Virus record (IMG/VR): IMGVR_UViG_3300042988_001200
From: a virus
Lineage: Duplodnaviria; Caudoviricetes
Length of the DNA: 64,000 bases
Direction: 5' to 3' (one strand)
In this document: positions 3-44,143 of the stretch, in pieces
How positions within the stretch are numbered: position 1 is the stretch's first letter
Layout of the letters: each line of letters begins with the position of its first letter
The notes under the pieces: model-generated
Told to the model about the DNA's origin: nothing
Seen by the model: only the letters and a program-made list of their open reading frames with translations
Databases searched by the model: none
Translations under genes and position numbers: made by a program

Positions 3-3000
3 GTAGATACTCCAGAACCATATATCCCTACTTATGAAATCTATAACTCTATATATGAACAAGGTAACTCTATCCTTAATCAATATTCAATCTCTAAAGG
101 TTTAATCCCTATAGAGATATATGATAACTGCTATGAAACTTGTTATCAAACAGAGACTATAGAGTTAGATAGAGAGTATTCATTTGTTATAAATAAGTCC
201 ACTTGCTATGAAGAGGGGGTCTATGAGAATTGTTATACAGAGGGTTATTTTGTATATTGGCAGACTTCTTTTATATATGAAGAATCCTGCTATGACTCTT
301 GTACAGTTAATAGTTTATTTCCTTTATTCTTCTTTACTAGAAGACAGGATACATGGTTATTAGAAGATGTCTTTTGTAAGGATATAAATACACCTACTAG
401 ATATATAGATAATGATGGTCATCTTATTAATATTGAAGTATCTAGTTGTATAGATAAAGAACCATTACTCTGGAATGATGATTTATTAATAGACCAAGAC
501 TGGTTAGAGTCTGATGGTAGTAGCTGCTTTGATAACTGCTATGAAAAGAGATATTACTATTATGATGAGGATAGGTATGTATACCAAGAAGGAGTTTATG
601 AAAGTGGTGTATATACTAAAAGAGCTCTTCTAATGTCTCTTCCCTTTATGGATGTCCAATGTCCAACCTGTAATATATCTTCTAATTGTTTAGTATCTTT
701 CTTAGGGAATATTATTCTAGAGCATCATTATAATTTAGAGGTAAGGGGAATGACAAGAGTACAGGATTACTTATATAGTAAATCTAGACCTCTAGAGATA
801 TTAGATTCTTGTTGTACTAGACCCTATGTAGTTAATGACCAGCTCGTAAGGATTAATGGAGATGTTATAGAGATATTCCAAGAGGGTTTATTAAAAGATG
901 ATTATCTTTATTCATTAGATATTGGATACACTATAGAGAGTACCAATGAGTTTATCCCTATTCAATCTAATGTTCCTATATCCCTTAATGGTTTCTACTC
1001 TTTATCTAGCTATATACCAGAGGGGATTAAGACTTTAATTCTATATAAATCTAATTATTACTTTAAGAAGGAAGTAGTAAGATTCTATGGAGCTTCATCT
1101 TCTAATCAATTTCTTATTCAGGATTCTTTATCTTTATTTAATAGTGTAACTAATACAACTACTATTGAGGATATAAGTATATCTCTTATATTGTTACTAT
1201 TATCTTCTTATAAAGAGTCTAAACCTTGTTCTACAGTTATATCTTTTAAGTCTTTACATCCATATATAAAGTCAGTTATAGATAATAATCTAGACATTCT
1301 ATCTACATTAATTGATAACTCTAATGATAAAAGAAGGGGTTCTATACCTAAGCAAGTAAGGTCTAATACTAAGCCAGAACATATATATGATGATAGTTAT
1401 TATCTAGAAAAGAGGGTTATTACTTGTTATGAAGAGGGGGTTTATAGTAATAAATGCGACTTCTTATGGGATGAATCCTTGATTATTGGGGATGAAATGT
1501 ACTGTTTATCTAGTTGTTTTAAGGAATCTATACTGGATTTCTCTATTAATAGAGAGGTGGATAATAGGTCTATAGCCTGGTTATTACTTGCCTATCTAAC
1601 ATATACAGAGGTTATTAATACAAATAAATATCAGTCTTCTATTGATTTATTATATGAATATCTCATTTCAGAAATAGATTATACTAATAAATTTATATAT
1701 AAAGGTTACTCTCATTCTGATATATATAGTAATTCCACTAGGTTAGAACTGATAGATACTTCCACTAACATAGCTGTTTGTATAGCCCTACTAAAGCATT
1801 ATTCAGTAACATCTAACTCAATATCCCTACTTTATGCCTCTAAACTAAAGAGATATATCTATCAATACCTTTATTCTAGAGATGATAACTTATTCATGGA
1901 TGAAGGTTACTTTACTTTAGATAGTAATTTATATGGTCTATGGCTATCTTTAGAAGTTAATGAAGCCCCTGCTGTAGAGACTATATTAGACTTCTTTACA
2001 ACTAGTCTTAATGAAGTATCTACTAATGTATCTATAAAGATAGATACTATAGATAATGAAGATATTCTTTTATTAGATAACTCCTATATCTATACAAATA
2101 TAGAATCTATATCCTTAAGAAATAATATAAAGGTTAATAATCTTTTATACTATCTGTTTAACTACTCTTTACAACAAGGCTATACCCACTCCTTCTTTAT
2201 ATTTAAAGATACAAGTCTAGATAGTAATATAGGTATTGCTAGTTGTTTATCTGATAGTTTATTTGAACATGAGTTGTTTAGAACTTATGGATATGAAGAT
2301 ATAGAAGTTTTAGAGACTAGTGAAGCTCTAATAGAAAATAGATTAAGGGATATGATGCCTATAGGATTTGACTGGTTTAGTAGAGAATCTTTAACTAGAC
2401 AAGGAAATATAGGTAATCTCTTAGGCTCTGTAAGTGGAAGTTTAGCTCTTAATAATGTTTCTATAAAGAGAATAAAGGATTCTATATCTTTAACTAATAG
2501 TAGGACTTATTCTATTAAGAGATGGGAACAGGATTTGAAAATGGTTAGATGGGAGTCTGAGACCTATACAGAATACAAGGATAGAGTGAGAAAGTTTATA
2601 AATAAGCCGTATATTATAAATCAAGCTATTCCTTATTTATTAAGTTTATATAAAATTGATGTAAAAAAACAATGGGATTGGAGTAGTAATATTACAAATA
2701 AATATAATTCTTTGTTCTTCTCTACTTCTAATGCTTATATTCAAGAAACAGATACAGTTATTAACACTCATATACTAGTAGTTAATTTCCCTATAACTCC
2801 CTCTCTTTATAGGTCTATAGAAGAGGTTAAACCTATAGGAACAAAGGTTATATTTGATTGGCAGTTAGATATAGAAACTTGTTTAATAGAACAAGAGTTA
2901 GAACCCTCTATAGTAGACCTTTCTACTGTTCAGAGAATACCTTCTTATTTCATAAATGAAGTATGTTGTAGTAGTAATAGTTGTAGAGTCTTAATGAAGA

Positions 3001-17631: not shown

Positions 17632-17640
17632 ATATAAATT

Positions 17641-17916: not shown

Positions 17917-17919
17917 TCT

Positions 17920-18623: not shown

Positions 18624-18627
18624 ACAT

Positions 18628-21444: not shown

Positions 21445-21760
21445 AAGGAACCCTCCAATATACATTCTTAAAAACCAACTATACAAAGAGTCCAACTCTC
21501 CTATTTATTCTTATATTCCTATAATTAAATATATAGAATACCCCTCTATTTTTAACTCTAAAGAACAGTATCTTACACCTTATGACTATTACTATTACCT
21601 TTTTAATCTAGGTACAGACACTAAAAAGACTCTTGAAGATATTAGATATAGAAGGTTCAAGGGTATAGCTGTAGATTTAGATGCTTTGTATAGGTACTAT
21701 AAAACTAATGTTAAGGTTAAGGAGAAATACTTTAAACCTATAGTTTATGGTAAGTTATAG
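21416..21760 (+). CDS. Hypothetical protein
   Basis: The tracked ORF starts at a TTG (21395); the first ATG is at 21416 (MKNGYQIAAK...). Tyr-rich. Confidence 0.5.
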   Translation: MKNGYQIAAKRNPPIYILKNQLYKESNSPIYSYIPIIKYIEYPSIFNSKEQYLTPYDYYYYLFNLGTDTKKTLEDIRYRRFKGIAVDLDALYRYYKTNVKVKEKYFKPIVYGKL

Positions 21761-22246: not shown

Positions 22247-22766
22247 CTTTCCTAAAGTTATATAGATAATCAATAAGGTCTTTTAATCTATTAAAATCTT
22301 TATCTAATAGATATTTATCTTCTAGTTCTTCTAACAGCTTCTCAGCTATTGATTTATTTCTAGCTATGATTACAAAGGGGTAGATCCCTTTATTAGGTTT
22401 AATTAAGTATTGAAAGTTAGAAGGTACATTAGCTTCTAGTATAGAAACATTACTCTTTTTAATTTTATAATCCTCTACTCTAAAGGATAAAACATATAGT
22501 TCTAGGTTTATATATCCCTCTTTATAAGGAATATTAATACATTCAAAGGGGGTATTTATTACATCTAAATAAACAGTATAAGTAGAATAAGATAACTTAT
22601 CATATAAAGTCTGACCATTAATATAAGCAATTAGGTTCTTAGCCTCATCAATATTATTAAAACAGCCTATTATTTCTCTAGGGTTAGGTTCATTATAGTT
22701 ATCTCCTGTTCCCTTAGAGTTGTACTCCATATAGACAATATACTGTTCAATTGTTTCATTAGACAT
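22236..22766 (-). CDS. Hypothetical protein, tandem paralogue A
   Basis: Paralogue of 21755..22246; likely start MSNETIEQ at 22766. Confidence 0.7.
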   Translation of the reverse strand: MSNETIEQYIVYMEYNSKGTGDNYNEPNPREIIGCFNNIDEAKNLIAYINGQTLYDKLSYSTYTVYLDVINTPFECINIPYKEGYINLELYVLSFRVEDYKIKKSNVSILEANVPSNFQYLIKPNKGIYPFVIIARNKSIAEKLLEELEDKYLLDKDFNRLKDLIDYLYNFRKDGI

Positions 22767-26556: not shown

Positions 26557-27516
26557 ATGTTAACTAAGAGGCATTTATTAGAGTTAAGAAGAAAGTTCTA
26601 TTATACTTCTAGTGCTTTTGGAGGACCAGAAAATCTAATAGAGATATTGGAAAGAACTAATATAACGGGTATAGAAGTAGAAAGACAGGTTTATAGAATC
26701 TTATCTCATCCAGGAGAAGTAAAGGTTATAAGTCCCTGGGGCTTAGTATTAGATTTAATGAATAGGGATTATACAGGTATAAGTAGAAGTGATTCTATAT
26801 TAATAAAATACCCCTATGGAGTATATAACTCTAGAGGAGAAATCTTATATAAAGTAAAGAATCATAATGGTTACTTTGGTCTTAGTAGTCTAGATAAAAC
26901 TCTGGTCCTTCAATCTAAGACAGGGGAGATGTTTTATCTTAGATATAGCTCTATAGAAGGGGAGATGGTAGTTCTACTTATAGTAAATAATCTGGCTCTG
27001 GAGAATGCTTATCCTAATGTTATATCTGATAGAGACTTTATAGAACCTCCTCCTCTTAGAGATGAACAGTCAGGATTTAATTTTGAGAGACCCGCTATAG
27101 AACCTTTTAAAAGATGGATTAGACTTAATACTTCTAGTCTTACTTCTAAATCTAATATTCTAGTTCATCAGTTAATAGGCTCCCCTACGGTTATACCTTC
27201 TATAGAACAACTTATAACCAATACTCAGGTAGTTACAGAGGAGATTTTAATAGATAAGGAAATAATCATTTACTTAAAGAAGTCTGGATGGTTATGTATG
27301 AGACAGGGTAATAACCTTTGTGTATTTGATAATTTAACAGGAGAAGGTGTAGATAGAGTTATAGAAGCTAAGAGAGGAATTTATTACATAGCTGTAGGAG
27401 ATGAGATTAAAACTAGTATTAATATAAGGCAGGAACTGGGTCTTGTTTCTAGAGTACCTGTTAATTTATCTACAGATGATTCTATTAGTCTAGTAGGGGG
27501 TATAACTTATGCTTAA
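26557..27516 (+). CDS. Hypothetical protein
   Basis: 319 aa; overlaps the terL start by 8 nt. Confidence 0.6.
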   Translation: MLTKRHLLELRRKFYYTSSAFGGPENLIEILERTNITGIEVERQVYRILSHPGEVKVISPWGLVLDLMNRDYTGISRSDSILIKYPYGVYNSRGEILYKVKNHNGYFGLSSLDKTLVLQSKTGEMFYLRYSSIEGEMVVLLIVNNLALENAYPNVISDRDFIEPPPLRDEQSGFNFERPAIEPFKRWIRLNTSSLTSKSNILVHQLIGSPTVIPSIEQLITNTQVVTEEILIDKEIIIYLKKSGWLCMRQGNNLCVFDNLTGEGVDRVIEAKRGIYYIAVGDEIKTSINIRQELGLVSRVPVNLSTDDSISLVGGITYA

Positions 27517-29278
27517 AAGGAATAAAAATAAAGGTAATAATACAAGTAGTTTACTAGCTTCATTAATAAGTGAGGCTAGTACCTCATTAGAGGCAGATAG
27601 CAATCTTTCTATAGTAGAGTTTGCAGAGGATATTTTATTTAATAGTAGAGTAAACTTGTTTCCTCAACAAAGGGCGGTGTTAAAGATATATAACAATGAG
27701 GATATAAATGAAGATGAGGAGAATATATTAAACGAGTGGTTTAATGAAGGTAAGACTACATGGAGGAAGGGTAGGGTATATAGTGATTTAGTTCTAGAAG
27801 CTGGTAGGGGTTCTGGTAAGAGTGTATTGGCAGCTATTATAGTTCTTTATGAGTTCTATAAGTTAATCTCATTAAAAGAACCTGCTTTATTCTATGGACT
27901 TATACCTAATGACCCTATATCCATATTTGTTATAGCTAAGAGTGGAGACCAAGTAAAAGAGACTTTATATGCAAAGATAAAGGGTTATGCTGAACAGAGT
28001 GAATACTTTAAAGCTCTAGTAGATAATGAAAAGATAACTATACAAGAAGAGATGATTAGATGTAAGGATAAGAATATAGCTATATATGCTAAACACACTA
28101 ACTCCTCCTCTCTAGTAGGTTATACCCTTAAGTGTTTAGTTCTAGATGAAGTGGCTAGATTTGATACTAGATTAGATGAGTATGGGGACCTTACTTCAGC
28201 GGCTGATGATATCTTTTATAACGTAGGTAAGGGTGTAAAGAGATTTGGAGCTAAAGGTAGAAGAGTAGCTATATCTAGTGCTTGGAGAGTTAATGACCCT
28301 ATAGAAAGACTTCTTAAAACAGCAGATAAGGACCCAGAGACTATTGGATTTAAATTATGTACTTGGGATATTAATAAAAGACCAGAGTCTACTAGACAAT
28401 CTCTTAACTCTGAATATCTAAAGGACCTTACTAGAGCTCAATTAGAGTATGAGGGCATAAGAATAAATAATAAGGGCTCTTCCTTTATATTAGAGGAACT
28501 TATAGATAAATGTACTAAAGGTTTATCTATGATAGATACAAAGGAGATAAATTTAGACATAGGGGATAGAGGTTATGTAGGACAAAAAGTATTAAGAATA
28601 GAAAAAGATAGAGAGACCCCTTGTTTTATTCATATAGATTTTAGTGTTAAGAGGGATGCTACTGGACTAGCTATAGCTTATCCTTATAAAGTAGATGATA
28701 GGTACTTAATTAATGTAGGAGGTTTAATTAAATGGACTCCATATACAGATGATAAAGGAAAGAAAAGGTTAATAAACTTTAATAATATAGAAGAAGTATT
28801 AATGATTCTAGCTCTTAATAGGAATATATTAAAGATGACATTTGACTCTTTTAGTAGTGCTCCAACTATTCAGAAGCTATATACATTAGGTATAGACACT
28901 CAAGAGGTGTCTGTTTCTAGAAGTAGTCAAGCTGAGTATTTTACTTTATTTAGGGATTTATTAAACCAGGAATTAGTTATTCTACCTAAAGATTCAATAT
29001 ACTTTTCATCTTTAAAGTCTGAGTTATTGGGCATTAAGATGAATGAAAATCTGTCTATAAGTCATGGACTACAAGGGAAAGATATATCAGATGCTGTAGT
29101 TAATAGTGTGTTTCAGTGCTATAACTATATAGTTAATTCTGGTTTAACCTTTAACAATACTAATAATATACTAGTTAATCCTAGTCTTAACTCTTTTATA
29201 AATATAATTAATTCCCCTTATAATATAGGTTCTAGTGTTAATAGATACCGTTCTCTTAAATATAAACGTCTTATTTAA
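27509..29278 (+). CDS. terL: Terminase large subunit
   Basis: Walker A LEAGRGSGKS, Walker B CLVLDE, coupling motif AISSA, RNase H-like nuclease FIHIDFSVKRDATG and a terminal KDISDAVV. Confidence 0.9.
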   Translation: MLKRNKNKGNNTSSLLASLISEASTSLEADSNLSIVEFAEDILFNSRVNLFPQQRAVLKIYNNEDINEDEENILNEWFNEGKTTWRKGRVYSDLVLEAGRGSGKSVLAAIIVLYEFYKLISLKEPALFYGLIPNDPISIFVIAKSGDQVKETLYAKIKGYAEQSEYFKALVDNEKITIQEEMIRCKDKNIAIYAKHTNSSSLVGYTLKCLVLDEVARFDTRLDEYGDLTSAADDIFYNVGKGVKRFGAKGRRVAISSAWRVNDPIERLLKTADKDPETIGFKLCTWDINKRPESTRQSLNSEYLKDLTRAQLEYEGIRINNKGSSFILEELIDKCTKGLSMIDTKEINLDIGDRGYVGQKVLRIEKDRETPCFIHIDFSVKRDATGLAIAYPYKVDDRYLINVGGLIKWTPYTDDKGKKRLINFNNIEEVLMILALNRNILKMTFDSFSSAPTIQKLYTLGIDTQEVSVSRSSQAEYFTLFRDLLNQELVILPKDSIYFSSLKSELLGIKMNENLSISHGLQGKDISDAVVNSVFQCYNYIVNSGLTFNNTNNILVNPSLNSFINIINSPYNIGSSVNRYRSLKYKRLI

Positions 29279-30970: not shown

Positions 30971-33900
30971 ATGTCTTCTTCTTCTCTTGATAGGTCTTTA
31001 AATTCTAGATATAATGAGGAGTCTTCTTTATCTAAGGCATTAAGAGACCCTGTTAGTATAGCACTAGCTGGAACTGCCGCTATGGGTGGTGTATTAGGAT
31101 CTATTAATTTCTTTAATAAAGTTAGAGATGATTATTATCATCCTTTTACTAGCTTCTTAAGAGATAGATTGAATGCTGATATTACACTAGAGGTTCCTTA
31201 TGACTATTACGATGAACCCTCAGCCTCCCGTTCAGAGAATACAACAAGAAAAACTAATAATCTAACAGAAATAGACCTTACTCCTACTCCTTCTTCCTCT
31301 GGTGATGTACCAGAGACTAATATCTTTATTAGGATAAATAATTGGATGACTGAGAGGAGACAGGAGCGTATGAATCAAAGATACGGTTCTAGTAATCCCG
31401 CACCTAATACTTCTAGCACCCCCTCTAGACCTACATCTAATACTAATACTCCAGCACCTAAACCCTCAATACCTCAGCCCATAACTCCTCCCCCAACTAA
31501 TCCCTCTTATTCAATACCAGACCCTTGGCTTGATACTTCAACTAGTAATACTCCCCCTACTAGACCTTCTATTGTTCCTGCTTCTGTTAATTCCCCATCT
31601 ACTCCAGTTAATAAAACTGTTCTTCCTTCTAATTCTGGAGTATCTATTAATCCTCCATCTATCTCTAGAGCAGCTCCTAGTGTACAGGTTAATAATGTTA
31701 TCCCTAATAAAAGACCGTTAAATCTTAATTCATTACCTCCTTCTAATAAGGTAATGGGTAGTATAGGTATAGCCGCTCTTAGTTATATAGGGTTAGGGGT
31801 TCTATTAAGGGGGCCTGATTATTTATCTTATACCTCTAGTGGGTTTACTAGTTTCCTAGGAGGATTAACTACAAATAATCCATATAAGGATGTAATACTA
31901 CCAGGGGGTCATAGAGTTATTCCTAGTCTATCTAATAGAACTCTTATGAGTAACTCTAGGTCTGATACTTTTATAGATGGTTATAAAGTAATGGATATAT
32001 CCATACCCTCTGGAGCTGACTCTAAGAATAAATCTATAGAGACTAACTACCTTCCAGAGGTACTAGCAGCAACTATAGGTATATCCTTTGGGGTAGGGGT
32101 TGATGTAGGGATGTCTAAGTTATCTAAGAGTATGGCTAATAGGTCTAACACCTTTAGACATGTATTTGATAGAGATAGAACAGGGACTTTTAGTAAGAAC
32201 TTCTCTCCTTTACTTTTAGGAGCTATAGCTGGAGCAGCTATATCAGATAACTCTATAGAAGATAAAGTACAGGGCACTTACCTAGGAGCTATGGGAGGAG
32301 GATTTATAGGGTTCCTAGGTATGAAAGAAGAGATAGGTCCCATGCTTAATAAAAGATTAGGTCTAGGTCTAATGGGTGGGGCTCTAGGTCTATTAATAGG
32401 TTCTAAGATAAGTGCTTCTAAAGAATCTAATAAAGTCACTTCTTATAGTATTAACAAAGGAGGAGAGTTAAGAGTTACTTATGATAACTTACAGGAGCTA
32501 ATAAAAGAAGATAAAGCTACATTACCCTATGACTTCTATAAACATCCAGAGGCTAATAAGTTAGTAGAGGCTTATCTAATAAGTAATCAAAGGGGTTTTA
32601 GAGGTATAGAAGATACAGGTAATTATGCAGATAGACATTTAATTTATCAGGTAAATAAAGATAAGCATGGATATAATACTCAAATAGGTAAGTTAAATAT
32701 TAAGTTGGATATAACTGTTCCTAGTTATTCAAAAGAGGAGGGGTTTATTAGAGTTAGTCAAGAGGAGGTTAGAAAGAAGTATTCTATTAAGGATACTGAT
32801 TCTATTGATAGAGCTAATGGTTTATTTAATGCTTATCAGATAGGTTTATTTATACCTTCTATGACCTTCTTTACTATAGGGACTATAGCAGAGGTTAAGA
32901 ATAAACCCGGGGTTAAGAAGATAGTAGATTTTATTACTAACTATACAGATAAGGTTAAGTATCTATGGCCAGGAGAAAGAGCTATAGGTGAGGGTATACA
33001 GGAGATAGGGCAGGGGAGTACAGCCTTTCTTACTAGAGGCTATTCTAGAGGACTTAATAGAGGTATAAGGAAACTAGGGGAGGGCATTAAGTATAAAGTT
33101 ATAGGTGAATCCCTTAGTTTAGCTAAGAAGACATTTATCTATGCTATACCTGTATCTATAATCTCCTCTATGTTTGGAAATATAGACAGAGATAATAATC
33201 AGAATATAGAGGTCTATAGTAAAGAGGTGTCTCACTATGAAGCTATAGAGACTATAATGCCAAAGGCTACAGGTAATAAGAATATAGACTCTAGAGTTAA
33301 TCTTCAGACTTATATGGAGGAGGGTACAGCCTATAAGTTAGGGGATGTTATTATCTATGATTCGGGCACTATAGGCCAAGGATTAAGGAACTTTCTAGAG
33401 ACAGCTCCAGATAAATCTGTTAAAGCTCTTTTATATAAGCTAGGACATGAACAGGGGTTACAAGAGGTAATAAGTAGAAAGGCTGCTATAGGGGGTATAG
33501 GTATAAGTGGTGGGGACAATATAGATACCTTTTCCTTTTGGGATGAGATAGGAAAAGGATTTCAAGGAGAGGGGTCATGGGCACAGGTTTTTAGTTATCC
33601 TTTAAGAGCTAGTAAACATGAATCATTAGGAGCTGGTATAGCTTCAATAACCAGTCCTATAGTAGGAGGGTTGTATAACAATCTAGCTACTAACCTAGGC
33701 TTTGACCCTATATATAACTATAAGTTTGATAAAGATGTTTACTCTCCATTAGCTCATTCTCTAAATACTCTTACTTATGGTGGGTTGGGAGCAGCAATAG
33801 GTATAGGGATACATTCATATGTAGGGGGAGCAGGTAGGATACCTATGAGGGGTAAAGGGAGATTCGTAGGAGGGTTAATAGGAGGGCTTATAGGTGTAGC

Positions 33901-36900
33901 TCTAGGAGCCACTCAACCTACATATATAGACTCTGGATTCTATGATTCCTTAAGTAAACAAACACAGTTATCCTTTGGGGTATTTAAAGAGAGTAGTGCC
34001 CATAAAGCTCTTACTAAAAAAGATTCTTCTATAGGAGACTTAGTATTAGGGGCTGGACTAACTGCTGGACTACCAGCATTGGTAGGTGTGGCTCTACCAA
34101 TGAAAGGGAGAGTTAATAGAGGTATATTCCTAGGGATAGTTGGTTATACCACTGGTATGATTATATCTACTATGACAGGTAATGGTGTATTACCATCTAC
34201 CTTACCTATGTCTAGAAGGTTCTTAACCAATGAGTATGACCTTAGTAATCAAACCTTTAGTGTTTTACCAGGGGCTAGAAGGGGTAGTGGTAAACAACAG
34301 TTATCCCATATTCACTCTAAGACCTTATGGAGTAGGGAAGAGGTGTTTATATCTACAGGTAACTTAGATTCTGTATGGAAGAATATATATGGAGATGAGT
34401 CCCAGTTTAATATAGCTGTTAGGGTTAAAGGAGATACAGCTAAGAAGCTAATACCTCAATTAGATATTCTCCATGAGTTTATGAAGAAAGCTACTCCAGA
34501 TTCTAACCTTTCTTCTATAGTAGACCAGATACCTGATTTGATACTAGGGGGGCAAGGTTCTAAATCTAATGAGAAGATATTAGAGTTTATTCAATCAGCT
34601 AAAGGGGATTTATGGATATCTGCTCCATATCTAGCAGGATTAAGTAGAGATGTAAGACCTTTAGTAGAAGCTATTAAAGCTCTAGAGGCTAAGGGACAAA
34701 ATGTTCATCTTATAGCTCAGAACCCTAGAGGAGTGTCTGCTGGGGGCCAACCAGAGATGTCTATAGCTTTACAAAGAGAGTTATTAGCCTCTGGAATAGA
34801 TGTATACACCACTCCATATACTAATACCACCCTAACCCATGCTAAGTTATTAGCTGATGATGTAAAGACCTTTATAACTAGCCATAACCTATTCTCTGGT
34901 AACTCTATGAATAAGGTAGTAGAGGTAGGTATAGTTCTAGAGGGGGAGGAATATGCTAAGGCTACTAAACAGGCAGCCCTTAGATTTATGATAAAGAATA
35001 ACTTCTCTAATATTAAAGATAGTCCTCAATTCTCTCCAGAGGTATCTAAAGGATTTAGAGGGGTAGAAAGAGTAAAGGCCCTAGATATAAACCCTCAGTT
35101 TGCTGGTCTATTTGACCACCATTCAGGCTATCTCCTTCTTAACTCTCAAATGGGAGCATCCTTTTTCTACTCTAGAGCTCTATATAATAATCTCCAACGT
35201 CAAGCAGGTTTCTATCATAGGATTATAGATGAAGAGTTTGGTCCAGCTACTAGCTTATTTAAAATAGCTTATCTAGCTCACATAAATAAGAACACTAATA
35301 CTCCTTTAAGTACGGACTTATCGTATATCCCCTACTTTGTTAGTCAATATGATAAAGAGTTACAGACTCAGGGGGTAGGTGGGGTATTTAATGAGTTTGT
35401 ATCCATGAGGTTAGGGATGGGTAGGATGTATAAAGATGAGTATGGGTTTATAGGTTCTATAGCTGGTTCTATAGGGGCTATTCTAGATAGAACTTACCTA
35501 TTCTTCCAGGGAGGTAATATAGTGGGAGTTCATAGTAACTATGATGATGTAGATAACAAGGATATGAAGTATAAGAATAGAATGTTTCAAGAGGGGACCT
35601 TTGAAGCATTATTTACTTATCTAGCTGTTACTGCTGAATCTGCTGTAGCTTCTATAGCCTTATATATCTCATTAGGAGAACCTATTAATTTATTAATAGG
35701 AGAGGGTTTTAAGACATCTACAGAGAACTTTATTAGAGATGCTATTAAAGAAGAAGATTTCCTATCCCCTTCATCTAGACTTAAAAGAGCCTCTAACCTA
35801 GGGTTATATGACTCTCAGAGTTCTATACAAGCTAGACTATCTTTATTCTCTTCTATTACATCAGGGGAGGAGTATTTCTCTGTATCTAACTTTAAGTTAA
35901 CTCCTTATCATGTAAGCAACTTCTTCCTTAGAGAAAGGTCCTACCATCTACAAAGAGAGGTATTAGAACCCTTCTTACTAGAGAAGATAAACCCCTATGA
36001 GAGATTTGAAAGGTCTCAACAAGGTTTTAGAGCGGTTATTAATAAGTTTATAGAAGAGATAAGAACCCCTCCAGAGATTAGATTAGTAGCTTCAGAATCT
36101 AATCTAGAAACTATATCTAAACTAGTAAAACAACAGAAGGAGATAAGTGAACACTTAAGTTCTATAGGGGTTAATAAAAAGCTAGTAGATGTAATTATTT
36201 CAGAGGCTATAGGTTATAAGGAAGTAAGGAGTCAATTAGCCTCTGCTCTAAATCTAGATCCTAATGCCTCCTTAGATGAAATAGTTAACACTCTTAAAGG
36301 ATTTAACTCCTCCTCTTATTTAGATGGTGTACTTCCATCTATACAAACTAGAAATAAACTAGGTACTTATACTTATACAGAAGAGGGTAAGTTAATATCA
36401 GGAGTTAATTTAGAGATAGGTAATGTAGGTGTAGAGAGAGCTACTAGGATAGCAAGAGCTGTACAGGATATATTAGATGAGATACCTCTTAATCCTATAC
36501 ATTGGAAGGTCTTTAATAGTAATAGTGTGGCTTCTTTATTAGGAGTAAAGGAAGGGGGTTATCAGAGAGTGGTTAATAGAACTAACTTTACTGTTATATC
36601 TAAGGTAGCTACTATAGGGGATATCCTATCCTTTACAGATTTAACTCAAACTATGTCAGAGATTATGTTTGGTAAAGGAGGGATATCTGCCTTCATAGCC
36701 GCTAATGAAATATATAGTACAGAAATAGATAAGAGTATAGCTAGACATTCAGTAGATAGGATTCATACTATATGGAATATGACAGCAGGAGCTGCTTATA
36801 GAGCTTCCTCTAGAGCATGGTCTAGATATAAGTTAGTTATGGGATTACCCTTTCAGACTGGATTAATGAAGGCTAGTGAGTCATTAAAGGCTATGGAGTT

Positions 36901-39900
36901 TAATCTATTTAATAAGATAGGGGATGATGGATTAAGAGGTATAACCTGGGGAGATGATGCAGCTATTATCTCTAAGAGAATAGAGGATTTAACTAAAGAG
37001 GCTAAAGCTATATGGGAACAGTCTATACAGTCTGGTGAGTATGAACGTATATCTAAATATGTATCAAGTCTAGACCAAAGAGGGTTTATAGCTGAGTATA
37101 TAGCAGAACAATTACAACCTCATGTGGATCCATTAGCCAGAAGAATTAATTATATAGATGAATCAGTAGTATCTGCATTACATCAAGTAGATGAGGTTCA
37201 TCAGGCTCTATCTAATAACCCTAGAATGGCAGGTACTTTCCTTATGGAGATGCAAGAGCATTTAAGGAAAGAAACTATGGATATGTTTGTTACTGCTACT
37301 ATGAGTGGTTCTAATCTACAGAAACGTCTTATTAAACTTAGACCAGGGGACCCCTATGGTCTAGCCTCTAAGAAGAAGATGGCTTCTGTAGCTATGTCTT
37401 TATTAGGTATAGGAACTATATTCCTAGAACAACTCTTTACTAATACTCAGGGAGTAAGTATATTTACTCAGGTAGCCACAGCTCTTACATTTAGTAGATA
37501 TAGTGATAAAGAAAGTGGTGTATCTACTACATTTACTAATAGTGCTTTCCTACCTGGTTCTGGTGTATCTAGATATATAACTAATATAGGGGTTAATATA
37601 GGGGTCCTTGGTCTATCTCATATAATAGGTTCTTCTATATTAAGGGCTCAGGCTCTAGATTACACCTTTGATAATGACTTGTTATATAGACATATAGATG
37701 AGACTAGGGGAGCTTCTATTAACATAAGACTCAAACATCTAGATGCTAATGGAGATGAGGTAATAGAGCTTGTATCTGATTTAATAGATGATTGGAAGAC
37801 AGAGGGTGTAGAGTCTGGAGCTGACCTTATTAAGAGATTAAAGGGGTTAGTTAATGAGGGTTACTCCCTTCAATACGCGGTTACTAAAGGAGCTTCCACT
37901 AAGTACCTATCAGCTTTTGTAGAAGGTAAATATCTAAAGACTAGGGCTATTAGATTTGTAGGTAATACATGGTTTAACACTGCTGTAACATATGCTGTAT
38001 TAACAATGGCTATAAAAGGGGTTAAAGGGGGTATAGCTTCTACTCTTAATACTCTTAGAGATACTACTGGAACCATAGACCCTATTCTATTTGGAGGTAT
38101 AGGTATGGGTATTGGAGCTATAAAAGGGGGATTTAGAGGAGGTCTAGCTGGATTAGCTGTAGGGGTATTTAGCTCTTTTATAATGAATAGTCTAGGGGTT
38201 AAACTTCTTAATATTGGAGGTAAAGGAGTTAAAGTAGATAATTTAGAGACTGGTATTTTATCAGAACTATCTAACTTTAGACATTATGTTATGGCTAATC
38301 TAGGAGATGCTAGTAGAGCAGAACTAATGGCAGCTCTATGGTCTAGAAATATGGAGTCTGCCTATTCTATTCTCTATAAAGAGCCTTCTGGTACAACCTC
38401 TAATGTATTAGCTAAACAAATAACCTTTCCAGTATTCCAATTCTTCTTTACTAGTAAGGTAATAGGAGAACAAATAAATAATGAAGGGATAATAACCAAT
38501 CCTGGGCAGATATATTATAGTACAGGGATTCAGGGTCCTCCTATAAGTGGTATATCCTTCTCTTTTGGTCTTCCTTTTAAGATAGTAAAGGGAAAGGGGG
38601 TGTTTGGTACAGGTATTGCCTATAATGAAGAGGCTAATGTTATGGATTATATTCATAGTGTTAGCTACACCTCTTTATATCTAGGAGCTAATAGTCTAGC
38701 TCTTGGGACTTTATATAAAGTAAGTAACTCATTAAAGAGTAAATCAGCTATTAAGGAAGTAGGAGTTCTAGAAATGTTAGCTAAGATGTCTAAGGGTACT
38801 GCTCAATTAGTAGATGATGTTTTAATGACTCCCGTAGAGTTTGGATATAGAGTAGTAACCTCTCTAGCTACAGTGGATATTCGTAATGCTTTCTCTGTAG
38901 CTTATAAGGAACAAGATAAGGCTGCTCAATTAGGTACTTTAAGAAAACCTGTAGGGGGTATAGGAGCTCTAGCATTAAAGACTTTACTAGGGTTATATAT
39001 AGGGGGTCAGATAGGAAGTTTATATCAAGGTATAGTCTCTAAGGATACTATTGAGTATCAAGATAAAGTGTCTTCTGCTATAGATGTAGGGGCTCTTATA
39101 GGTGGGGGTCTAGCAGTTGGTCATCATTTTATATACCCTAAGATATATCCGCATATACAGGGTAAGTTATTTAAATACAACTCTTTACCTAGACTCCCTA
39201 GATATATACCAGCTCTAGCTATAGGAATAGGAGTAGGCACTCTTATGGCTAATAGTAGCTATGGATTAAGTAGTGGTATGGATTTCCATGAGGATGAACT
39301 TAGTTTCACTAAATATGCAATTACTGCTGTAGGTTATGGAACAGTATTAGGAACTGTAGCCTATAAGGTGGGTAATATAGGATTAACAATGGCAGATACT
39401 CTCCAGAAGTATGTAGATTTAGATAGTAGGTTAGAGATGGCTACTGTTAAGAGTACAACTGGTAGTGGGTTAAATAGGATGGTTAATAAGGCTAAGAAGT
39501 TCTACTACTCCTTATTTATAGATAATGCCCAGAAGGAAGCTCAGATGGTAGTAGATACTATTAAACATAACCAGCAGGAGATAGATGTTAGATATAACCA
39601 AGTAAAGGGGGTAAAGGGAGAAACAGTAGCAGATACTTTACCAGATGGTTATGCTCGTAAAGCTGTAGAACTTATAGATAATAATACAGATGTTAAGTTT
39701 CTTATTCACTCTAGTGAGAACAAAGAGATTCTTAATAATATTAATAAAGCTAAGGGTTCGTTCTTAGAGTCTAGATTTCATAAAAGGATATTTCCTCATA
39801 GAGTTAAGAGAACAGTAGGTGGGATGATAGCTCTTGGAATAGGATTATCTATATTAATGGGAGGTAATGAGGGTCAGTTCTATGATTATATAGAGGGAGC

Positions 39901-42900
39901 TTCTCCTGATCAATCTAAGGTTAGAGCTTCAATGGGTAAGATGCAGGCTGTATTCAGGTCTTCTCTAGCAGATATATTTAGGTTAATAACAGGTAGAGAT
40001 AAGAAGCTAATGAGTCCTAACCAACTTAATAATGTCTTTAGGTCAGCATCTGAGTATACAGGTATAGACTATAAAGTTCAATATGAGAAGTTATTAAAGA
40101 CTAGACCAGACCTTATTAATTCTATTAATAGTAGTATTAATGGTTTCTCTCAATTAATGGTATTTGATAGCCCTAATGCTTTTATATCTATAGGGGTTAT
40201 AGGAGGAGCATTTAGAAGAAGTGAGTATGGTAACATCTTAACTCCTTATATTCAGATTCAAGGTACAGGGGCTGATATAAGTACAGCTTCCTACCAAATG
40301 GTCTCTAGGTTCTATTTCAACTCTGTTATAGGTGGAGCTAATAATCTCTACTTTGATATTATGAATGCTGTAAAGATAAGTAATCAGGCATTAAAAGCTG
40401 GTCAACCTATGTCTAAATTTATATCTAGACAGATAGCTATTAACCTTCTTAGTGTTACAGCTAAACAACAACCTCTACAGAAGAGGAGGAAGGTCTCTAT
40501 GTTAAATGAAGAGACTATATCAGCCCTATCTTCTGATAGCCTTCTAGGAGCCATATTAAAACATAGGGTTAATATTACTAAGAACCTTAGCTATCAACCA
40601 CCCCTCTCTTTAGCTACTAGACTTTTATTAAATAATGTAGAGACTAATCCTCAAATAGCTAATCCTGTACTTCTATATTTACTTTCTCCTGATACTTTAA
40701 AGGAACTAGGTTTAAATATTGACTCTACTGTATTTGAGTTGTTATCTAAGGACCCCTTCTTCTTATTATCTAAGTCCTTTGTTATTAATGGTATTAACTC
40801 TTTTGCTCTTAATAGAGATGCTGTAGGTAATTACCTTAAAGGTATATTCTTCCCAGCTCAGATACCTATGGACCATCAAGATATATGGAAGGGTGGGGAT
40901 TCCTCCTATATCTCCTCCTATTATCAACATGAAGGAGACATAGGCTTTGCTATTATGCAGGCTAGTAGAACCAATCCTATCCTTCAATTATTAGGTAATT
41001 TAACTAGAGGAGTTCCTAGTTCTATTAAGGCCCTAGGAGCTGGAGTCATATTTGCTTCTTTATTAGGGGTTATAACCTTTAATCTAGGGAGAAAGGGTCT
41101 AGCTATAGAAGATAGAGCTTTATATAAGGAGATAAATGAATACTTTCTATCTGGATGGTTTAAACAAAGTAGAGAGGCAGAGGGGTTTGCATGGACCTTT
41201 AGAACCTCTTATCCCTTAGTAGGTAAGAAGGCTAGTCTAAAGGTTAGTGGAGAGAACTATTCTATTATCTATAAGGGGGCATACCAGTTTGTTATTAATA
41301 ATAGGATAGGTAATAGTGTAGGTATAAGTAGACTATTAGCTAAAGTACAGGAGGACCTGTATGGAATAATTACTGAATCCTTTGGGGCTGAATATGATGA
41401 TAAAGGGGTGATGACTAAGAAAGGTACTAATCTAGCAGACTGGTTTTTATCTAGTAATAAACAAAAGGAGTTAATCCAGGCCATTGAGTCTATAGATAAA
41501 CCTACTAAGGCTGATTCTTTAACCATCACTCATTTAGATGAGAATGGTAACTCTACGGATAAAGTCTTTACAGTAGAAACAGATAAACCTATACTAGATA
41601 ATCTTAATAACCTTAAACACTTTGAGGATTCATTAGGAGAATTAGATGAGGCTCAGTCCGCTCTATTAATTGAGTTTAGAAGTAAACAGACATCATTATA
41701 TGAGAAATCACTTAGACCCTCTACTTTAGTAAAGAATATAACAGATGTTTTTATGAAGGATATGGAAGATTTAGTAGATAGATACATAGACACCCTTATT
41801 GATAATAGGATAAGAGTTAATGAGAACTATCTATTAAATTTACCTCAATTAGATAATGAAACTAAATCTATAAGTGAAATATTTGATTCATATCAAGACC
41901 CTAATAGTAGATATAAGGGGATAGTTAAATATGTAGATTCCTTTGGAGATGTAACTAGATGGACAGAAGTATCCTTTATAACTATACTTAACCCTAATAT
42001 GGGACTACAGGATATGATGGAAATTAGTTATCTATTAAAGAATAAGGATACAAGACCCGAGGGTTTAACTAGATTAGTAGCTGGAATGAGTGCAGAACAA
42101 AAAGCTCTTTATACTGTAAATATAGATGGGAAGGCTACTGTAGATATCCATAAGGCCCTTAAAGAACAAGCTAGGGTGGCCATTAGTGATGCTGTGGAGC
42201 AGTATATATCCCAGTTCCCAGGGTCAACAGAGGAAGCAAAGAAGGCTCTTCTAAAGCATTTCCAAGGTACTAATCCTAGACTAGATAATATGACTATAGA
42301 AGTTCTAGGGGGTTTAATTGGATTAAAGAAGGATAAAGATGCTTCCTTCTTTTCTTTACTTAGACATCATTGGGCTGGATTAGGAACTACACCTACTGCT
42401 GATGTAACTAGAGGTCTCTCTACAACTATGAGACGTATGGTTAATTTTATTAGAGGTAAATCTTCTATACCAGATGCTGATGAGACAGGGGTAGTATCTA
42501 CTACTAAGACAGACCCTTATCTAATCGGTAAGTCTAATAATAGTCCTATACCTATGGGGATAATGACTGAATCAGGAGATGAGGTTATTAATAGAGTTCT
42601 AGTAGCTCAAGATATGGCTAGAGCTGATGTAGGATTTGGTAATAAGATAGGTAAGGGCTTTGGTATATTACTAGAGTTCTTAGGCTTTGGAGTAGATGTA
42701 GTAGAGGGTGTATCTACTATGGCCGCCTTCTCTAGATTAGGTCATGCTTATACATCTGAGACATATACAGAAGCTCAGATTATGAATGAGGCTATGTACG
42801 CTGGTACTACCCTAGTTAACTCTGCTTTATCTATACTTATTCTAGGAGCTGCTTCTTATGCAGCTAATGTATTTGCAGCAGGGACTTTAGCTGCTTTTAT

Positions 42901-44143
42901 AGCTCCATTGGTTATTATAGGTGTAGCTTCATTAGCAGGCTTTGCCTTTAATAAATGGGCTCCAGACTCTATTAAGAGTAAAGTTCATGGAGGGTTTAAT
43001 AAACTATATGAAGGGGCAGCTAAGATGCTTAAAGGTGGTGGAGATTTCTTTAGAGATAAGTTTGGTAAAAGAGCTGCATCAGCATTCTCTCATGCTGTAG
43101 GTGGCATAATGATGGGGGGAATGATAGTAGCATCTCTAGGTACTATCTCATCTATCAGTGCTTTAGTAGGGTTAGGTACAGCTATATCTATGCCTGCTCT
43201 AGGCAGCTTCTTATTAGCAGGGGCAGCTATAGGTGGTGTAACAGCAGCAGCTATAGGGTTTCTTAATCCTGGTTTATTAGATAAAACTCTAGGTCCTATG
43301 GTAGAGTCCTTAAGTAATGTAAGGATAGGTAATGTTCCTTTAGGACGTTTATTTGTTATAAGACCAGACCAGTGGTTATATGAGTTTATGAAGACAGGAG
43401 ACCCTATAACTGGAGTAGATAAATATGGAGCTCCTATTAAAGCTATAACTGCTAATGATTTAATTAAACAAGATTATGCTGCTCAATTACTAGCTGCTGA
43501 TGATTATACCGGCTCTAGTGCTGCTTCTTTATTTATCCACCAAGGGATGTATGGAACTTATAACACTAATAACTCAATAGATAAATATGGAAAGGTAAGT
43601 ATAATAAGGCCCCCTTCTATACTTTCTCCCTTTATTCAAAAGGAGATTAAATATAGAGGTCAACTCTTTAATCAATCTATTGTAGGTAGATATGTATGGA
43701 ATACTCTACTAGCTAATAGTTCTAACCAAAGGCATGTAAGAAAGGTTATGGAATCTCCTATACTTAAACCCTCTACTAATGCTCTTAAACAAATAAGTAT
43801 TGATGCAGCTAGACATGCACAAGTAAAACAGTTCCAATCTAAGTCTGTGACCTTATTATCTAAGTCCTTTACTATCAGAAATATACCTATACTAGCCTCT
43901 ATAATTGATAAGTTTAATGATGCTAAAGCTAAGTTACAGGCTAAGATAGCTTACGCTAAATTACCCATCAGGGCTATATTTAGATTAGATAATATAACAA
44001 GTTCTGATAGAGAATATAAAAAGGATTTAAGATTAGCTCCAATGGAAGTAGCAGCTATTGTAGATGGTAATATTATAAGGAAGGTTACAACCTCTGAATC
44101 AGAGATTAAAGAGGAAGTTTTTAATAATATTAATTACAGTTAA
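30971..44143 (+). CDS. Giant (4390 aa) tape-measure/ejection-like protein with glycine-rich hydrophobic segments and a phospholipase D-superfamily module
   Basis: Pro/Ser/Thr linker (about aa 105-250) and many G-x3-G hydrophobic segments. PLD motifs: HSKTLWSREEVFISTGNL (His codon 34313) and HAKLLADDVKTFITSHNL (His codon 34838), plus ILEFIQSAKGDLWISAPYL. Confidence 0.75.
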   Translation: MSSSSLDRSLNSRYNEESSLSKALRDPVSIALAGTAAMGGVLGSINFFNKVRDDYYHPFTSFLRDRLNADITLEVPYDYYDEPSASRSENTTRKTNNLTEIDLTPTPSSSGDVPETNIFIRINNWMTERRQERMNQRYGSSNPAPNTSSTPSRPTSNTNTPAPKPSIPQPITPPPTNPSYSIPDPWLDTSTSNTPPTRPSIVPASVNSPSTPVNKTVLPSNSGVSINPPSISRAAPSVQVNNVIPNKRPLNLNSLPPSNKVMGSIGIAALSYIGLGVLLRGPDYLSYTSSGFTSFLGGLTTNNPYKDVILPGGHRVIPSLSNRTLMSNSRSDTFIDGYKVMDISIPSGADSKNKSIETNYLPEVLAATIGISFGVGVDVGMSKLSKSMANRSNTFRHVFDRDRTGTFSKNFSPLLLGAIAGAAISDNSIEDKVQGTYLGAMGGGFIGFLGMKEEIGPMLNKRLGLGLMGGALGLLIGSKISASKESNKVTSYSINKGGELRVTYDNLQELIKEDKATLPYDFYKHPEANKLVEAYLISNQRGFRGIEDTGNYADRHLIYQVNKDKHGYNTQIGKLNIKLDITVPSYSKEEGFIRVSQEEVRKKYSIKDTDSIDRANGLFNAYQIGLFIPSMTFFTIGTIAEVKNKPGVKKIVDFITNYTDKVKYLWPGERAIGEGIQEIGQGSTAFLTRGYSRGLNRGIRKLGEGIKYKVIGESLSLAKKTFIYAIPVSIISSMFGNIDRDNNQNIEVYSKEVSHYEAIETIMPKATGNKNIDSRVNLQTYMEEGTAYKLGDVIIYDSGTIGQGLRNFLETAPDKSVKALLYKLGHEQGLQEVISRKAAIGGIGISGGDNIDTFSFWDEIGKGFQGEGSWAQVFSYPLRASKHESLGAGIASITSPIVGGLYNNLATNLGFDPIYNYKFDKDVYSPLAHSLNTLTYGGLGAAIGIGIHSYVGGAGRIPMRGKGRFVGGLIGGLIGVALGATQPTYIDSGFYDSLSKQTQLSFGVFKESSAHKALTKKDSSIGDLVLGAGLTAGLPALVGVALPMKGRVNRGIFLGIVGYTTGMIISTMTGNGVLPSTLPMSRRFLTNEYDLSNQTFSVLPGARRGSGKQQLSHIHSKTLWSREEVFISTGNLDSVWKNIYGDESQFNIAVRVKGDTAKKLIPQLDILHEFMKKATPDSNLSSIVDQIPDLILGGQGSKSNEKILEFIQSAKGDLWISAPYLAGLSRDVRPLVEAIKALEAKGQNVHLIAQNPRGVSAGGQPEMSIALQRELLASGIDVYTTPYTNTTLTHAKLLADDVKTFITSHNLFSGNSMNKVVEVGIVLEGEEYAKATKQAALRFMIKNNFSNIKDSPQFSPEVSKGFRGVERVKALDINPQFAGLFDHHSGYLLLNSQMGASFFYSRALYNNLQRQAGFYHRIIDEEFGPATSLFKIAYLAHINKNTNTPLSTDLSYIPYFVSQYDKELQTQGVGGVFNEFVSMRLGMGRMYKDEYGFIGSIAGSIGAILDRTYLFFQGGNIVGVHSNYDDVDNKDMKYKNRMFQEGTFEALFTYLAVTAESAVASIALYISLGEPINLLIGEGFKTSTENFIRDAIKEEDFLSPSSRLKRASNLGLYDSQSSIQARLSLFSSITSGEEYFSVSNFKLTPYHVSNFFLRERSYHLQREVLEPFLLEKINPYERFERSQQGFRAVINKFIEEIRTPPEIRLVASESNLETISKLVKQQKEISEHLSSIGVNKKLVDVIISEAIGYKEVRSQLASALNLDPNASLDEIVNTLKGFNSSSYLDGVLPSIQTRNKLGTYTYTEEGKLISGVNLEIGNVGVERATRIARAVQDILDEIPLNPIHWKVFNSNSVASLLGVKEGGYQRVVNRTNFTVISKVATIGDILSFTDLTQTMSEIMFGKGGISAFIAANEIYSTEIDKSIARHSVDRIHTIWNMTAGAAYRASSRAWSRYKLVMGLPFQTGLMKASESLKAMEFNLFNKIGDDGLRGITWGDDAAIISKRIEDLTKEAKAIWEQSIQSGEYERISKYVSSLDQRGFIAEYIAEQLQPHVDPLARRINYIDESVVSALHQVDEVHQALSNNPRMAGTFLMEMQEHLRKETMDMFVTATMSGSNLQKRLIKLRPGDPYGLASKKKMASVAMSLLGIGTIFLEQLFTNTQGVSIFTQVATALTFSRYSDKESGVSTTFTNSAFLPGSGVSRYITNIGVNIGVLGLSHIIGSSILRAQALDYTFDNDLLYRHIDETRGASINIRLKHLDANGDEVIELVSDLIDDWKTEGVESGADLIKRLKGLVNEGYSLQYAVTKGASTKYLSAFVEGKYLKTRAIRFVGNTWFNTAVTYAVLTMAIKGVKGGIASTLNTLRDTTGTIDPILFGGIGMGIGAIKGGFRGGLAGLAVGVFSSFIMNSLGVKLLNIGGKGVKVDNLETGILSELSNFRHYVMANLGDASRAELMAALWSRNMESAYSILYKEPSGTTSNVLAKQITFPVFQFFFTSKVIGEQINNEGIITNPGQIYYSTGIQGPPISGISFSFGLPFKIVKGKGVFGTGIAYNEEANVMDYIHSVSYTSLYLGANSLALGTLYKVSNSLKSKSAIKEVGVLEMLAKMSKGTAQLVDDVLMTPVEFGYRVVTSLATVDIRNAFSVAYKEQDKAAQLGTLRKPVGGIGALALKTLLGLYIGGQIGSLYQGIVSKDTIEYQDKVSSAIDVGALIGGGLAVGHHFIYPKIYPHIQGKLFKYNSLPRLPRYIPALAIGIGVGTLMANSSYGLSSGMDFHEDELSFTKYAITAVGYGTVLGTVAYKVGNIGLTMADTLQKYVDLDSRLEMATVKSTTGSGLNRMVNKAKKFYYSLFIDNAQKEAQMVVDTIKHNQQEIDVRYNQVKGVKGETVADTLPDGYARKAVELIDNNTDVKFLIHSSENKEILNNINKAKGSFLESRFHKRIFPHRVKRTVGGMIALGIGLSILMGGNEGQFYDYIEGASPDQSKVRASMGKMQAVFRSSLADIFRLITGRDKKLMSPNQLNNVFRSASEYTGIDYKVQYEKLLKTRPDLINSINSSINGFSQLMVFDSPNAFISIGVIGGAFRRSEYGNILTPYIQIQGTGADISTASYQMVSRFYFNSVIGGANNLYFDIMNAVKISNQALKAGQPMSKFISRQIAINLLSVTAKQQPLQKRRKVSMLNEETISALSSDSLLGAILKHRVNITKNLSYQPPLSLATRLLLNNVETNPQIANPVLLYLLSPDTLKELGLNIDSTVFELLSKDPFFLLSKSFVINGINSFALNRDAVGNYLKGIFFPAQIPMDHQDIWKGGDSSYISSYYQHEGDIGFAIMQASRTNPILQLLGNLTRGVPSSIKALGAGVIFASLLGVITFNLGRKGLAIEDRALYKEINEYFLSGWFKQSREAEGFAWTFRTSYPLVGKKASLKVSGENYSIIYKGAYQFVINNRIGNSVGISRLLAKVQEDLYGIITESFGAEYDDKGVMTKKGTNLADWFLSSNKQKELIQAIESIDKPTKADSLTITHLDENGNSTDKVFTVETDKPILDNLNNLKHFEDSLGELDEAQSALLIEFRSKQTSLYEKSLRPSTLVKNITDVFMKDMEDLVDRYIDTLIDNRIRVNENYLLNLPQLDNETKSISEIFDSYQDPNSRYKGIVKYVDSFGDVTRWTEVSFITILNPNMGLQDMMEISYLLKNKDTRPEGLTRLVAGMSAEQKALYTVNIDGKATVDIHKALKEQARVAISDAVEQYISQFPGSTEEAKKALLKHFQGTNPRLDNMTIEVLGGLIGLKKDKDASFFSLLRHHWAGLGTTPTADVTRGLSTTMRRMVNFIRGKSSIPDADETGVVSTTKTDPYLIGKSNNSPIPMGIMTESGDEVINRVLVAQDMARADVGFGNKIGKGFGILLEFLGFGVDVVEGVSTMAAFSRLGHAYTSETYTEAQIMNEAMYAGTTLVNSALSILILGAASYAANVFAAGTLAAFIAPLVIIGVASLAGFAFNKWAPDSIKSKVHGGFNKLYEGAAKMLKGGGDFFRDKFGKRAASAFSHAVGGIMMGGMIVASLGTISSISALVGLGTAISMPALGSFLLAGAAIGGVTAAAIGFLNPGLLDKTLGPMVESLSNVRIGNVPLGRLFVIRPDQWLYEFMKTGDPITGVDKYGAPIKAITANDLIKQDYAAQLLAADDYTGSSAASLFIHQGMYGTYNTNNSIDKYGKVSIIRPPSILSPFIQKEIKYRGQLFNQSIVGRYVWNTLLANSSNQRHVRKVMESPILKPSTNALKQISIDAARHAQVKQFQSKSVTLLSKSFTIRNIPILASIIDKFNDAKAKLQAKIAYAKLPIRAIFRLDNITSSDREYKKDLRLAPMEVAAIVDGNIIRKVTTSESEIKEEVFNNINYS

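Follow-up and report, generated by a model that had tools for sequence, protein, structure and literature searches.

A predicted two-lobed phospholipase D module with a hydrophobic helical insertion in a giant protein of a putative cyanophage

Can a phospholipase D (PLD)-type catalytic domain be interrupted within its first half by a long run of hydrophobic helices and still form one enzyme, and what would such an enzyme do inside a giant phage protein? The locus that raises this question is a single 13,173-nt open reading frame (ORF) at 30971-44143 (+ strand) in the 64,000-nt stretch of virus record IMGVR_UViG_3300042988_001200 analysed here (the window), which is part of a 171,917-bp virus contig. 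It encodes a 4390-aa giant protein, P0001, with collinear homologues at 26-81% identity. A previous sequence-only reading had placed a two-motif PLD module at 33370-35000, where no competing ORF of at least 80 aa occurs on either strand. Profile match, motifs and predicted fold all place the module in the PLD superfamily.

Motifs and predicted fold of the module

PLDc_2 (PF13091) is the sole Pfam domain over the whole of P0001. It matches aa 1203-1333, in lobe 2 of the module, with an E value of 9.7e-10 and 38.8 bits against a cut-off of 27 (45.3 bits in the genome-level search, at the same cut-off), and is matched individually by 10/10 aligned homologues (best E 4e-18); lobe 1 went undetected in the Pfam search. 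Motif 1, HSK(x)10STGN (34313..34363, + strand), comprises His1115, Lys1117 and Asn1131, and motif 2, HAK(x)4D(x)6TSHN (34838..34888, + strand), comprises His1290, Lys1292, Asp1297 and Asn1306. The sequence-only reading had motif 1 keeping the His and Lys of an HKD motif without its Asp, and motif 2 as canonical; both statements are borne out in P0001, with the residue numbers exact. That reading had also staked itself on conservation of the motifs, and in homologues at 23-81% identity both HxK motifs are kept in all: motif 1 has its His, Lys, Gly and Asn in each of the nine that cover it, the His and Lys of motif 2 are invariant (10/10) and its Ser-His-Asn is found in 9/10, and a Glu after motif 2 (aa 1318) is invariant in the ten sequences. 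The Asp of the classical HxK(x)4D pattern is not a family feature, motif 1 having no conserved acidic residue across the family and the motif 2 Asp, present in P0001, being variable. Judged by these patterns, selection clearly maintains the catalytic residues of the module.

An AlphaFold model of aa 780-1400, built on a ten-sequence alignment (mean pLDDT 73.7, pTM 0.67), falls into three zones of confidence: model residues 1-70 (pLDDT 83-96), residues 74-306, all of them helices (41-68), and residues 310-590 (mostly 80-97). The N-terminal part of lobe 1 (aa 780-849; 33308..33517, + strand; pLDDT 83-96) is built of a β-hairpin/β1, αA, β2, αB and β3 (E8-11, E14-17, H22-32, E38-42, H49-58 and E59-66 by DSSP, in model residues) and holds the FLETAPDKS...AAIGG sequence, conserved in homologues. 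The segment starting at aa 808 (nt 33392) had been read as the piece that normally precedes motif 1, displaced by about 250 aa, and in the model it does belong to β1-αA-β2-αB-β3 of lobe 1. The C-terminal part of the same lobe (aa 1089-1174; 34235..34492, + strand) has pLDDT 81-97, except for a short loop before motif 1, and contains β4, β5 with the HxK, β6, the GxN, β7 and αD (E316-318, E338-341, E346-349, H353-361, E370-373 and H375-393). Lobe 1 is therefore ordered β, α, β, α, β (residues 14-66), a helical stretch, and then β, β (HxK), β, α, β, α (316-393). Lobe 2 (aa 1184-1369; 34520..35077, + strand), in which the PLDc_2 match lies, is mostly at pLDDT 83-93, dropping to ~61 at its C-terminal end, and repeats this element order over model residues 411-563, with one helix (482-494) in place of the long helical stretch of lobe 1. 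Aligned with each other by hhalign, the two lobes have their motifs in register with an E value of only 0.006 and low probability, so that an internal duplication is backed by structure and not by sequence.

In the model, aa 780-850 and aa 1089-1369 form one two-lobed PLD fold, and a Foldseek search with it retrieved only two-lobed PLD enzymes. The best VIA-align match was PLD4 (8v08_A), with Z 28.7 and an rmsd of 3.0 Å over 313 residues in the model range 12..578, followed by PLD3 (Z 28.6-27.5), Serratia SpPLD (7e0m, 27.4), vaccinia F13 (26.8) and PssA (26.6), and, at Z 20-23, by PLD1/2, PPK1 and Streptomyces PLD. The sequence-only reading had asked whether the two halves come together as a PLD pseudo-dimer, and the superposition on two-lobed PLDs does extend over both lobes. 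The number of aligned residues, 313, is close to what remains of the model range once the helical stretch is taken out; the N-terminal segment is therefore part of lobe 1, into which the helices are inserted. Compact bacterial PLD models of 287-395 aa from the ESM Atlas align over 284-313 residues with rmsd 2.7-3.3 Å and TM scores by target of 0.68-0.87 (query 1-620), and none of them has the insert. From the global superposition we infer that His1115 and His1290 lie together in one active site. Altogether, aa ~787-1369 are predicted to make up one complete phosphodiesterase/phosphotransferase domain of the PLD superfamily (HxK...GxN), two-lobed and lacking none of the catalytic residues, and in silico this structural claim is solid.

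A natural orthologue practically free of the insert bears on the same point. In P0006, a protein of 3653 aa, the N-terminal segment runs almost straight into motif 1, and collinearity with P0001 and with gp120 of Microcystis phage Ma-LMM01 far past the PLD module marks it as an orthologue and not a different protein. Its module (aa 140-560) was modelled less confidently than that of P0001 (pLDDT 64, pTM 0.70), and the model aligns with SpPLD (7e0m) with Z 23.0 over 305 residues (model 9..394), covering almost the whole 388-aa chain. That P0006, with 35 aa at the insert site, still folds as a compact PLD in the model supports the reading of a split first half. The P0006 gene lies on a 12-kb contig with two unannotated neighbours, and its product offers a ready-made soluble construct for activity tests.

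The insertion itself (aa 850-1088; 33518..34234, + strand) is modelled as long glycine-rich helices only (pLDDT 41-68) and has PTxID and GNG as conserved short motifs. Between β3 and β4 (aa 846-1092) lie 247 aa in P0001, with 39% G+A+S+T and only 14% charged residues, and 194-248 aa in the seven homologues aligned across the site. Three hydrophobic segments stand out in Kyte-Doolittle means over 19 residues, for which the classical transmembrane threshold is 1.6: the glycine-zipper segment 1 (aa 963-981; 33857..33913, + strand) with a mean of 1.43, segment 2 (aa 1024-1042; 34040..34096, + strand) with 2.04, and segment 3 (aa 1051-1069; 34121..34177, + strand) with 1.37. Segment 1 has an equivalent peak in most insert-bearing homologues and segment 2 in most homologues, and Gly-zipper Pfam families match one homologue. 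In the model, then, lobe 1 is interrupted between β3 and β4 by a ~240-aa helical insertion with three conserved glycine-zipper hydrophobic segments. The sequence-only reading had spoken both of glycine-rich hydrophobic helices and of membrane helices; the former description is confirmed, and the latter goes further than one segment in three above the threshold can carry, so that we treat membrane insertion as plausible. A large β3/β4 insertion in lobe 1 was found in none of the solved or predicted structures retrieved in the VIA-align, Swiss-Prot, BFVD and ESM Atlas comparisons. Although enzymes of the PLD superfamily are well understood, in none of these structures does a large hydrophobic module loop out from within a catalytic lobe, and none is part of a 4000-aa phage protein.

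A narrow family of giant phage proteins

The family to which the module belongs is extremely narrow. A word-indexed search found five giant relatives with 27-81% identity in the module, and an exhaustive phmmer search with aa 780-1400 against 1.84 billion representatives returned only eight proteins, namely seven giants (3653-5131 aa) and one single-lobe protein. The latter, P0010, is a stand-alone metagenomic protein of 170 aa that aligns to lobe 2 (HPK...GSAN), and may exemplify the sort of ancestor that gave rise to the PLD module. Searches in other directions added little. The region had no Megablast match among 50,697 phage records, a scan of IMG/VR with two conserved peptide patterns gave 129 pattern matches of which none was confirmed, and sequence searches of the PDB with the core and with the family profile gave chance-level matches only. 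A profile of the catalytic core run against 5.8 billion proteins had two weak matches, a 209-aa PLDc_2 protein and a 479-aa Cls-type protein, and the closest cellular subfamily is consequently not nameable by sequence. A language-model look-alike search with aa 1391-3400 was uninformative (best score 0.76). Taken at face value, these comparisons indicate that the module is an old, divergent lineage and probably not a recent capture from a host gene.

The sequence-only reading had proposed a search for the same fusion in metagenomic phages, and the insert-bearing module is indeed found in other giants, among them the 4151-aa giant of Microcoleus phage My-WqHQDG (WOL31340), in which the module, insert included, is 38-40% identical to that of P0001 and has a PLDc_2 match. 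Like P0001, this protein and the giants of Fukuivirus (Ma-LMM01 gp120 and its MaMV homologues) are placed after the gene for the large terminase subunit, TerL, and are collinear with aa 1391-4390. Consistent with this, the only PHROGs family found on P0001 is an unnamed one built on Ma-LMM01 gp120, at aa 1390-1703; neither Pfam nor PHROG searches of P0001 revealed a tape-measure family. The giants of Ma-LMM01, MaMV and My-WqHQDG are all annotated as hypothetical, and our literature search found no study of any of these giant proteins.

Unlike P0001, gp120 (2898 aa) has no Pfam-detectable PLD. Its aa 1-467, in the place equivalent to the PLD module, are Pfam-negative, keep an N-terminal segment like that at aa 808, and have HSK at residue 156 and SASHN farther on; the hydrophobic stretch of gp120 comes after motif 1, not before. 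MAFFT gave no reliable alignment of gp120 to the PLD module. From its sequence, the region looks like a degenerate or rearranged version of the module.

A second giant ORF (5372 aa) lies outside the window, on the minus strand at 6355-22473 of the genome. Its product, a homologue of Ma-LMM01 gp080 (blastp E 1e-31) but no paralogue of P0001, contains HPK...GSFN at His402 and HVK...GSSN at His745, a likeness to the P0001 module at motif level only. The same holds for gp080, which belongs to another giant family than P0001, is similar in its PLD at motif level only, and matches PLDc_2 at 24.6 bits. Automated annotation already flags a PLD domain in gp080: the BFVD entry A0A7J4_1, labelled "PLD phosphodiesterase domain-containing protein", is gp080 by its piece length (1187 = 3562/3) and PF13091 match, which rule out gp120 as its source. 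Both giants of this phage group may thus carry PLD-type modules. Neither giant of the present genome (4390 and 5372 aa) contains a single cysteine.

Lipid, nucleic acid or neither

In PLD chemistry, one His attacks the phosphodiester to give a phospho-histidine, the other His protonates the leaving group, and the Lys and Asn pairs hold the phosphate. On which phosphodiester would the module of P0001 act? Our tentatively preferred answer, which we rate as somewhat less than an even chance, is that it is a membrane-held PLD acting on lipid phosphodiesters. The insert, like the ~20 glycine-zipper hydrophobic segments along the giant (densest in its last 450 aa), would dip into or lie on the host membrane, and this contact would keep the catalytic domain on the surface of the membrane, where it would most likely act on lipid head-group phosphodiesters. 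Phosphatidylglycerol is the main cyanobacterial phospholipid, and candidate reactions are its hydrolysis to phosphatidic acid or a transfer of the cardiolipin synthase type, either of which might alter local membrane curvature or stability. Among fold neighbours, the lipid enzymes SpPLD and PssA ranked first in Foldseek against the PDB, and cardiolipin synthase A ranked first against Swiss-Prot models (E 4e-13); cardiolipin synthase alignments that include the helices have an rmsd of ~23 Å and are therefore not to be trusted over the helices.

Several observations weigh against this reading. Structurally, the highest Z values are those of the PLD3/PLD4 5' exonucleases, with the lipid enzymes 1-2 Z units lower; for lobe 2, the closest curated profiles (DrmC, NucT, DpdK) describe single-lobe proteins that bear the name of nucleases or are taken to be such, and they come ahead of cardiolipin synthase; just one of the three insert segments passes the 1.6 threshold, and the insert is modelled at low confidence; and cyanobacterial membranes are poor in phospholipid. 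The first two of these would suit a membrane-tethered nuclease of the PLD3/PLD4, Nuc/NucT or DrmC kind, cutting host or competitor nucleic acid or processing an end near the membrane during entry or takeover. This alternative, rather less likely in our view, draws on the ssDNA/RNA 5' exonucleases PLD4/PLD3 as top VIA-align matches (Z 28.7-28.1), on PLD3/4 being themselves membrane-anchored, on a NucT-like phage nuclease among the weaker BFVD matches, and on the NCBIfam profiles, in which DrmC is best in 9/10 members (best E 9e-23), NucT being found in two, DpdK in one and cardiolipin synthase in three. Yet the profile scores lie far under the family cut-offs: P0001 scores 42.1 bits with DrmC (NF038319) against a cut-off of 133, as it scores 20.9 with cardiolipin synthase (TIGR04265) against 290, and the Z gap to the lipid enzymes is small. 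Moreover, a nuclease carried by a DNA-delivery protein would, unless specific, put the DNA of the phage itself at risk, and a hydrophobic insert inside the catalytic lobe suits an interfacial lipid enzyme better. By its profile scores, the module falls outside cardiolipin synthase, DrmC and every other curated subfamily tested. The sequence-only reading had looked to Foldseek to decide between cardiolipin synthase and nuclease; PLD-fold neighbours were found, but those for lipid and for nucleic acid came mixed, and fold and profile neighbours together fail to separate the two substrates.

A third account, in which the PLD fold has no catalytic activity and acts as a plug, structural or ligand-binding, in a giant scaffold or tape-measure-like protein, seems to us improbable. 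It would explain why motif 1 is without the HKD Asp and the motif 2 Asp is not invariant, and the equivalent region of Ma-LMM01 gp120, Pfam-negative and with its second motif disturbed, fits it, as does the existence of PLD-fold proteins of doubtful or no activity, such as F13. However, the HKD Asp is not catalytic and is absent from active members such as Tdp1, and nearly all homologues at 23-40% identity retain the His, Lys and Asn of both motifs, together with the Glu that follows motif 2, in surroundings that drift. By substrate class, we would give lipid the largest share of the probability, just under one half, nucleic acid a clearly smaller one and an inert fold a slight one, leaving the remainder to other phosphodiesters. 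Were the module a nuclease or inert, it would be a structural curiosity in an otherwise unannotated giant gene.

Genomic setting and route to the host membrane

The giant gene directly abuts its upstream neighbour (stop 30968, start 30971) and is the last of a long same-strand block of head, tail and packaging genes. The same strand carries, upstream of the giant, baseplate and fibre genes and the gene for TerL (27509..29278, + strand; PHROG TerL families), with three small ORFs between TerL and the giant; farther upstream in the genome are genes for the major head protein, the sheath, a tube-position gene, a 668-aa ORF, a baseplate protein and an M23 peptidase. TerL shares 48% identity with Ma-LMM01 gp118 and 42% with the Microcoleus phage ORF that precedes the giant of that phage. 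The order TerL, one to three small ORFs and giant ORF is common to three phage lineages (this phage, Ma-LMM01 and My-WqHQDG), and the gene order agrees with that of the Microcystis phages Ma-LMM01 and MaMV-DH01 and of My-WqHQDG. The TerL identities and the matching gene order therefore point to a freshwater cyanobacterial virus, a contractile-tailed cyanophage distantly related to Fukuivirus.

Near its N-terminus, P0001 has a long low-complexity stretch rich in Pro, Ser, Thr and Asn (window ~31240-31750; aa ~90-260), ahead of the first strongly hydrophobic segment. Two further features of the genome may be recorded. A gene for a lysine/ornithine N-monooxygenase-like flavoprotein at 3167-4273 of the window lies within the baseplate/fibre block and has the same place in MaMV-DH01 (ORF129), so that it is a conserved feature of the phage group. 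Another large ORF, of 1652 aa, is found at 161527-166485 of the genome; Pfam searches of this ORF and of the 5372-aa second giant gave no significant family.

Is the giant carried in the virion? Its position after TerL in a late same-strand module is what suggests a virion protein. P0001 as a pure tape measure is disfavoured by gene position, since the giant gene sits after TerL, at the far end of the structural module and outside the tape-measure position; a tape-measure-like role is still compatible. The usual tape-measure position, after the sheath and tube-position genes and before the baseplate genes, is occupied by the 668-aa ORF (genome 37897-39903; phrog_34291, function unassigned), which is conserved in MaMV-DH01 as ORF115. 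Given that the giant gene ends a late same-strand structural module after TerL, we favour delivery from the virion at DNA entry over late synthesis and insertion.

In the latter case, which we think doubtful, the giant would go unpackaged: made late and inserted in the host cytoplasmic or thylakoid membrane, its PLD would remodel lipids for assembly or lysis, much as poxvirus F13 acts in envelope wrapping. F13-type proteins are indeed strong fold matches (Z 26.8; BFVD rank 1), and ~20 hydrophobic segments would be hard to keep soluble in a capsid. Against late insertion, these segments are moderately hydrophobic glycine zippers, a type seen in tape-measure and pilot proteins that are ejected, and unlike classical transmembrane helices; no signal peptide is evident by eye at the N-terminus of P0001; and the gene ends the head, tail and packaging block and abuts its neighbour. 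Expression in Ma-LMM01 has also been put on the side of late synthesis: in its transcriptome most genes, packaging and lysis genes included, are in the middle class and only five are late (PMC5780444). Counting against packaging as well, the literature search found no proteomic or expression statement on the giant or its Ma-LMM01/MaMV homologues, and the presence of the giant or of gp120 in virions is unsupported there.

Joining virion delivery to a lipid substrate yields a fuller scenario, to which we give a low probability. Fukuivirus-like cyanomyoviruses would package one or two giants with a PLD-type enzyme, the ejected glycine-zipper helices would enter the host envelope or thylakoid, and the PLD clamped there would rewrite phosphatidylglycerol to phosphatidic acid or cardiolipin, opening or stabilising a conduit for the DNA. 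If true, it would make this PLD the first to be delivered by a virion and the first whose catalytic lobe houses a membrane module; our literature search found no PLD domain reported in a tape measure or in cyanophages. More generally, if the giant is ejected into the host, phages that infect bloom-forming cyanobacteria (Microcystis and Microcoleus among them) would have an entry enzyme of a new class.

How does the module compare with characterised PLD proteins? DISARM DrmC and Nuc/NucT, the nearest curated profiles for its lobe 2, differ from it in being single-lobe and dimerising, and no DISARM gene context surrounds the giant, whose neighbours are phage terminase and structural genes. ClsA resembles the module in combining hydrophobic helices and two HKD lobes in one chain, with its helices ahead of lobe 1 where those of the module are inside it. 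The lysosomal 5' exonucleases PLD3/PLD4 (PDB 8v08, 8q1x) are likewise membrane-anchored two-HKD enzymes and the best structural matches over both lobes, but are eukaryotic, have a single N-terminal anchor outside the fold and share 13-15% identity with the module. SpPLD of Serratia plymuthica is a compact bacterial two-HKD PLD (PDB 7e0m; PMC8004604), and both it and the module are single-chain two-lobed PLD folds of ~330-390 aa; SpPLD, in contrast, is free-standing, soluble and without insertion, is 11-14% identical, and is linked to the module by no sequence search. As to delivery, an ejected giant would have its counterpart in the PLD effectors, such as Tle5, that type VI secretion systems (T6SS) fire. 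An enzyme domain in an ejected phage protein has a precedent in the peptidoglycan-hydrolase motif of the TM4 tape measure (PMC1796659). The TM4 tape measure, T6SS Tle5 and the proposed giant would, with no homology among them, embody the same idea, namely that an enzyme acting on the envelope, housed in a long and partly hydrophobic protein or accompanying one, is delivered by a contractile or tail machine.

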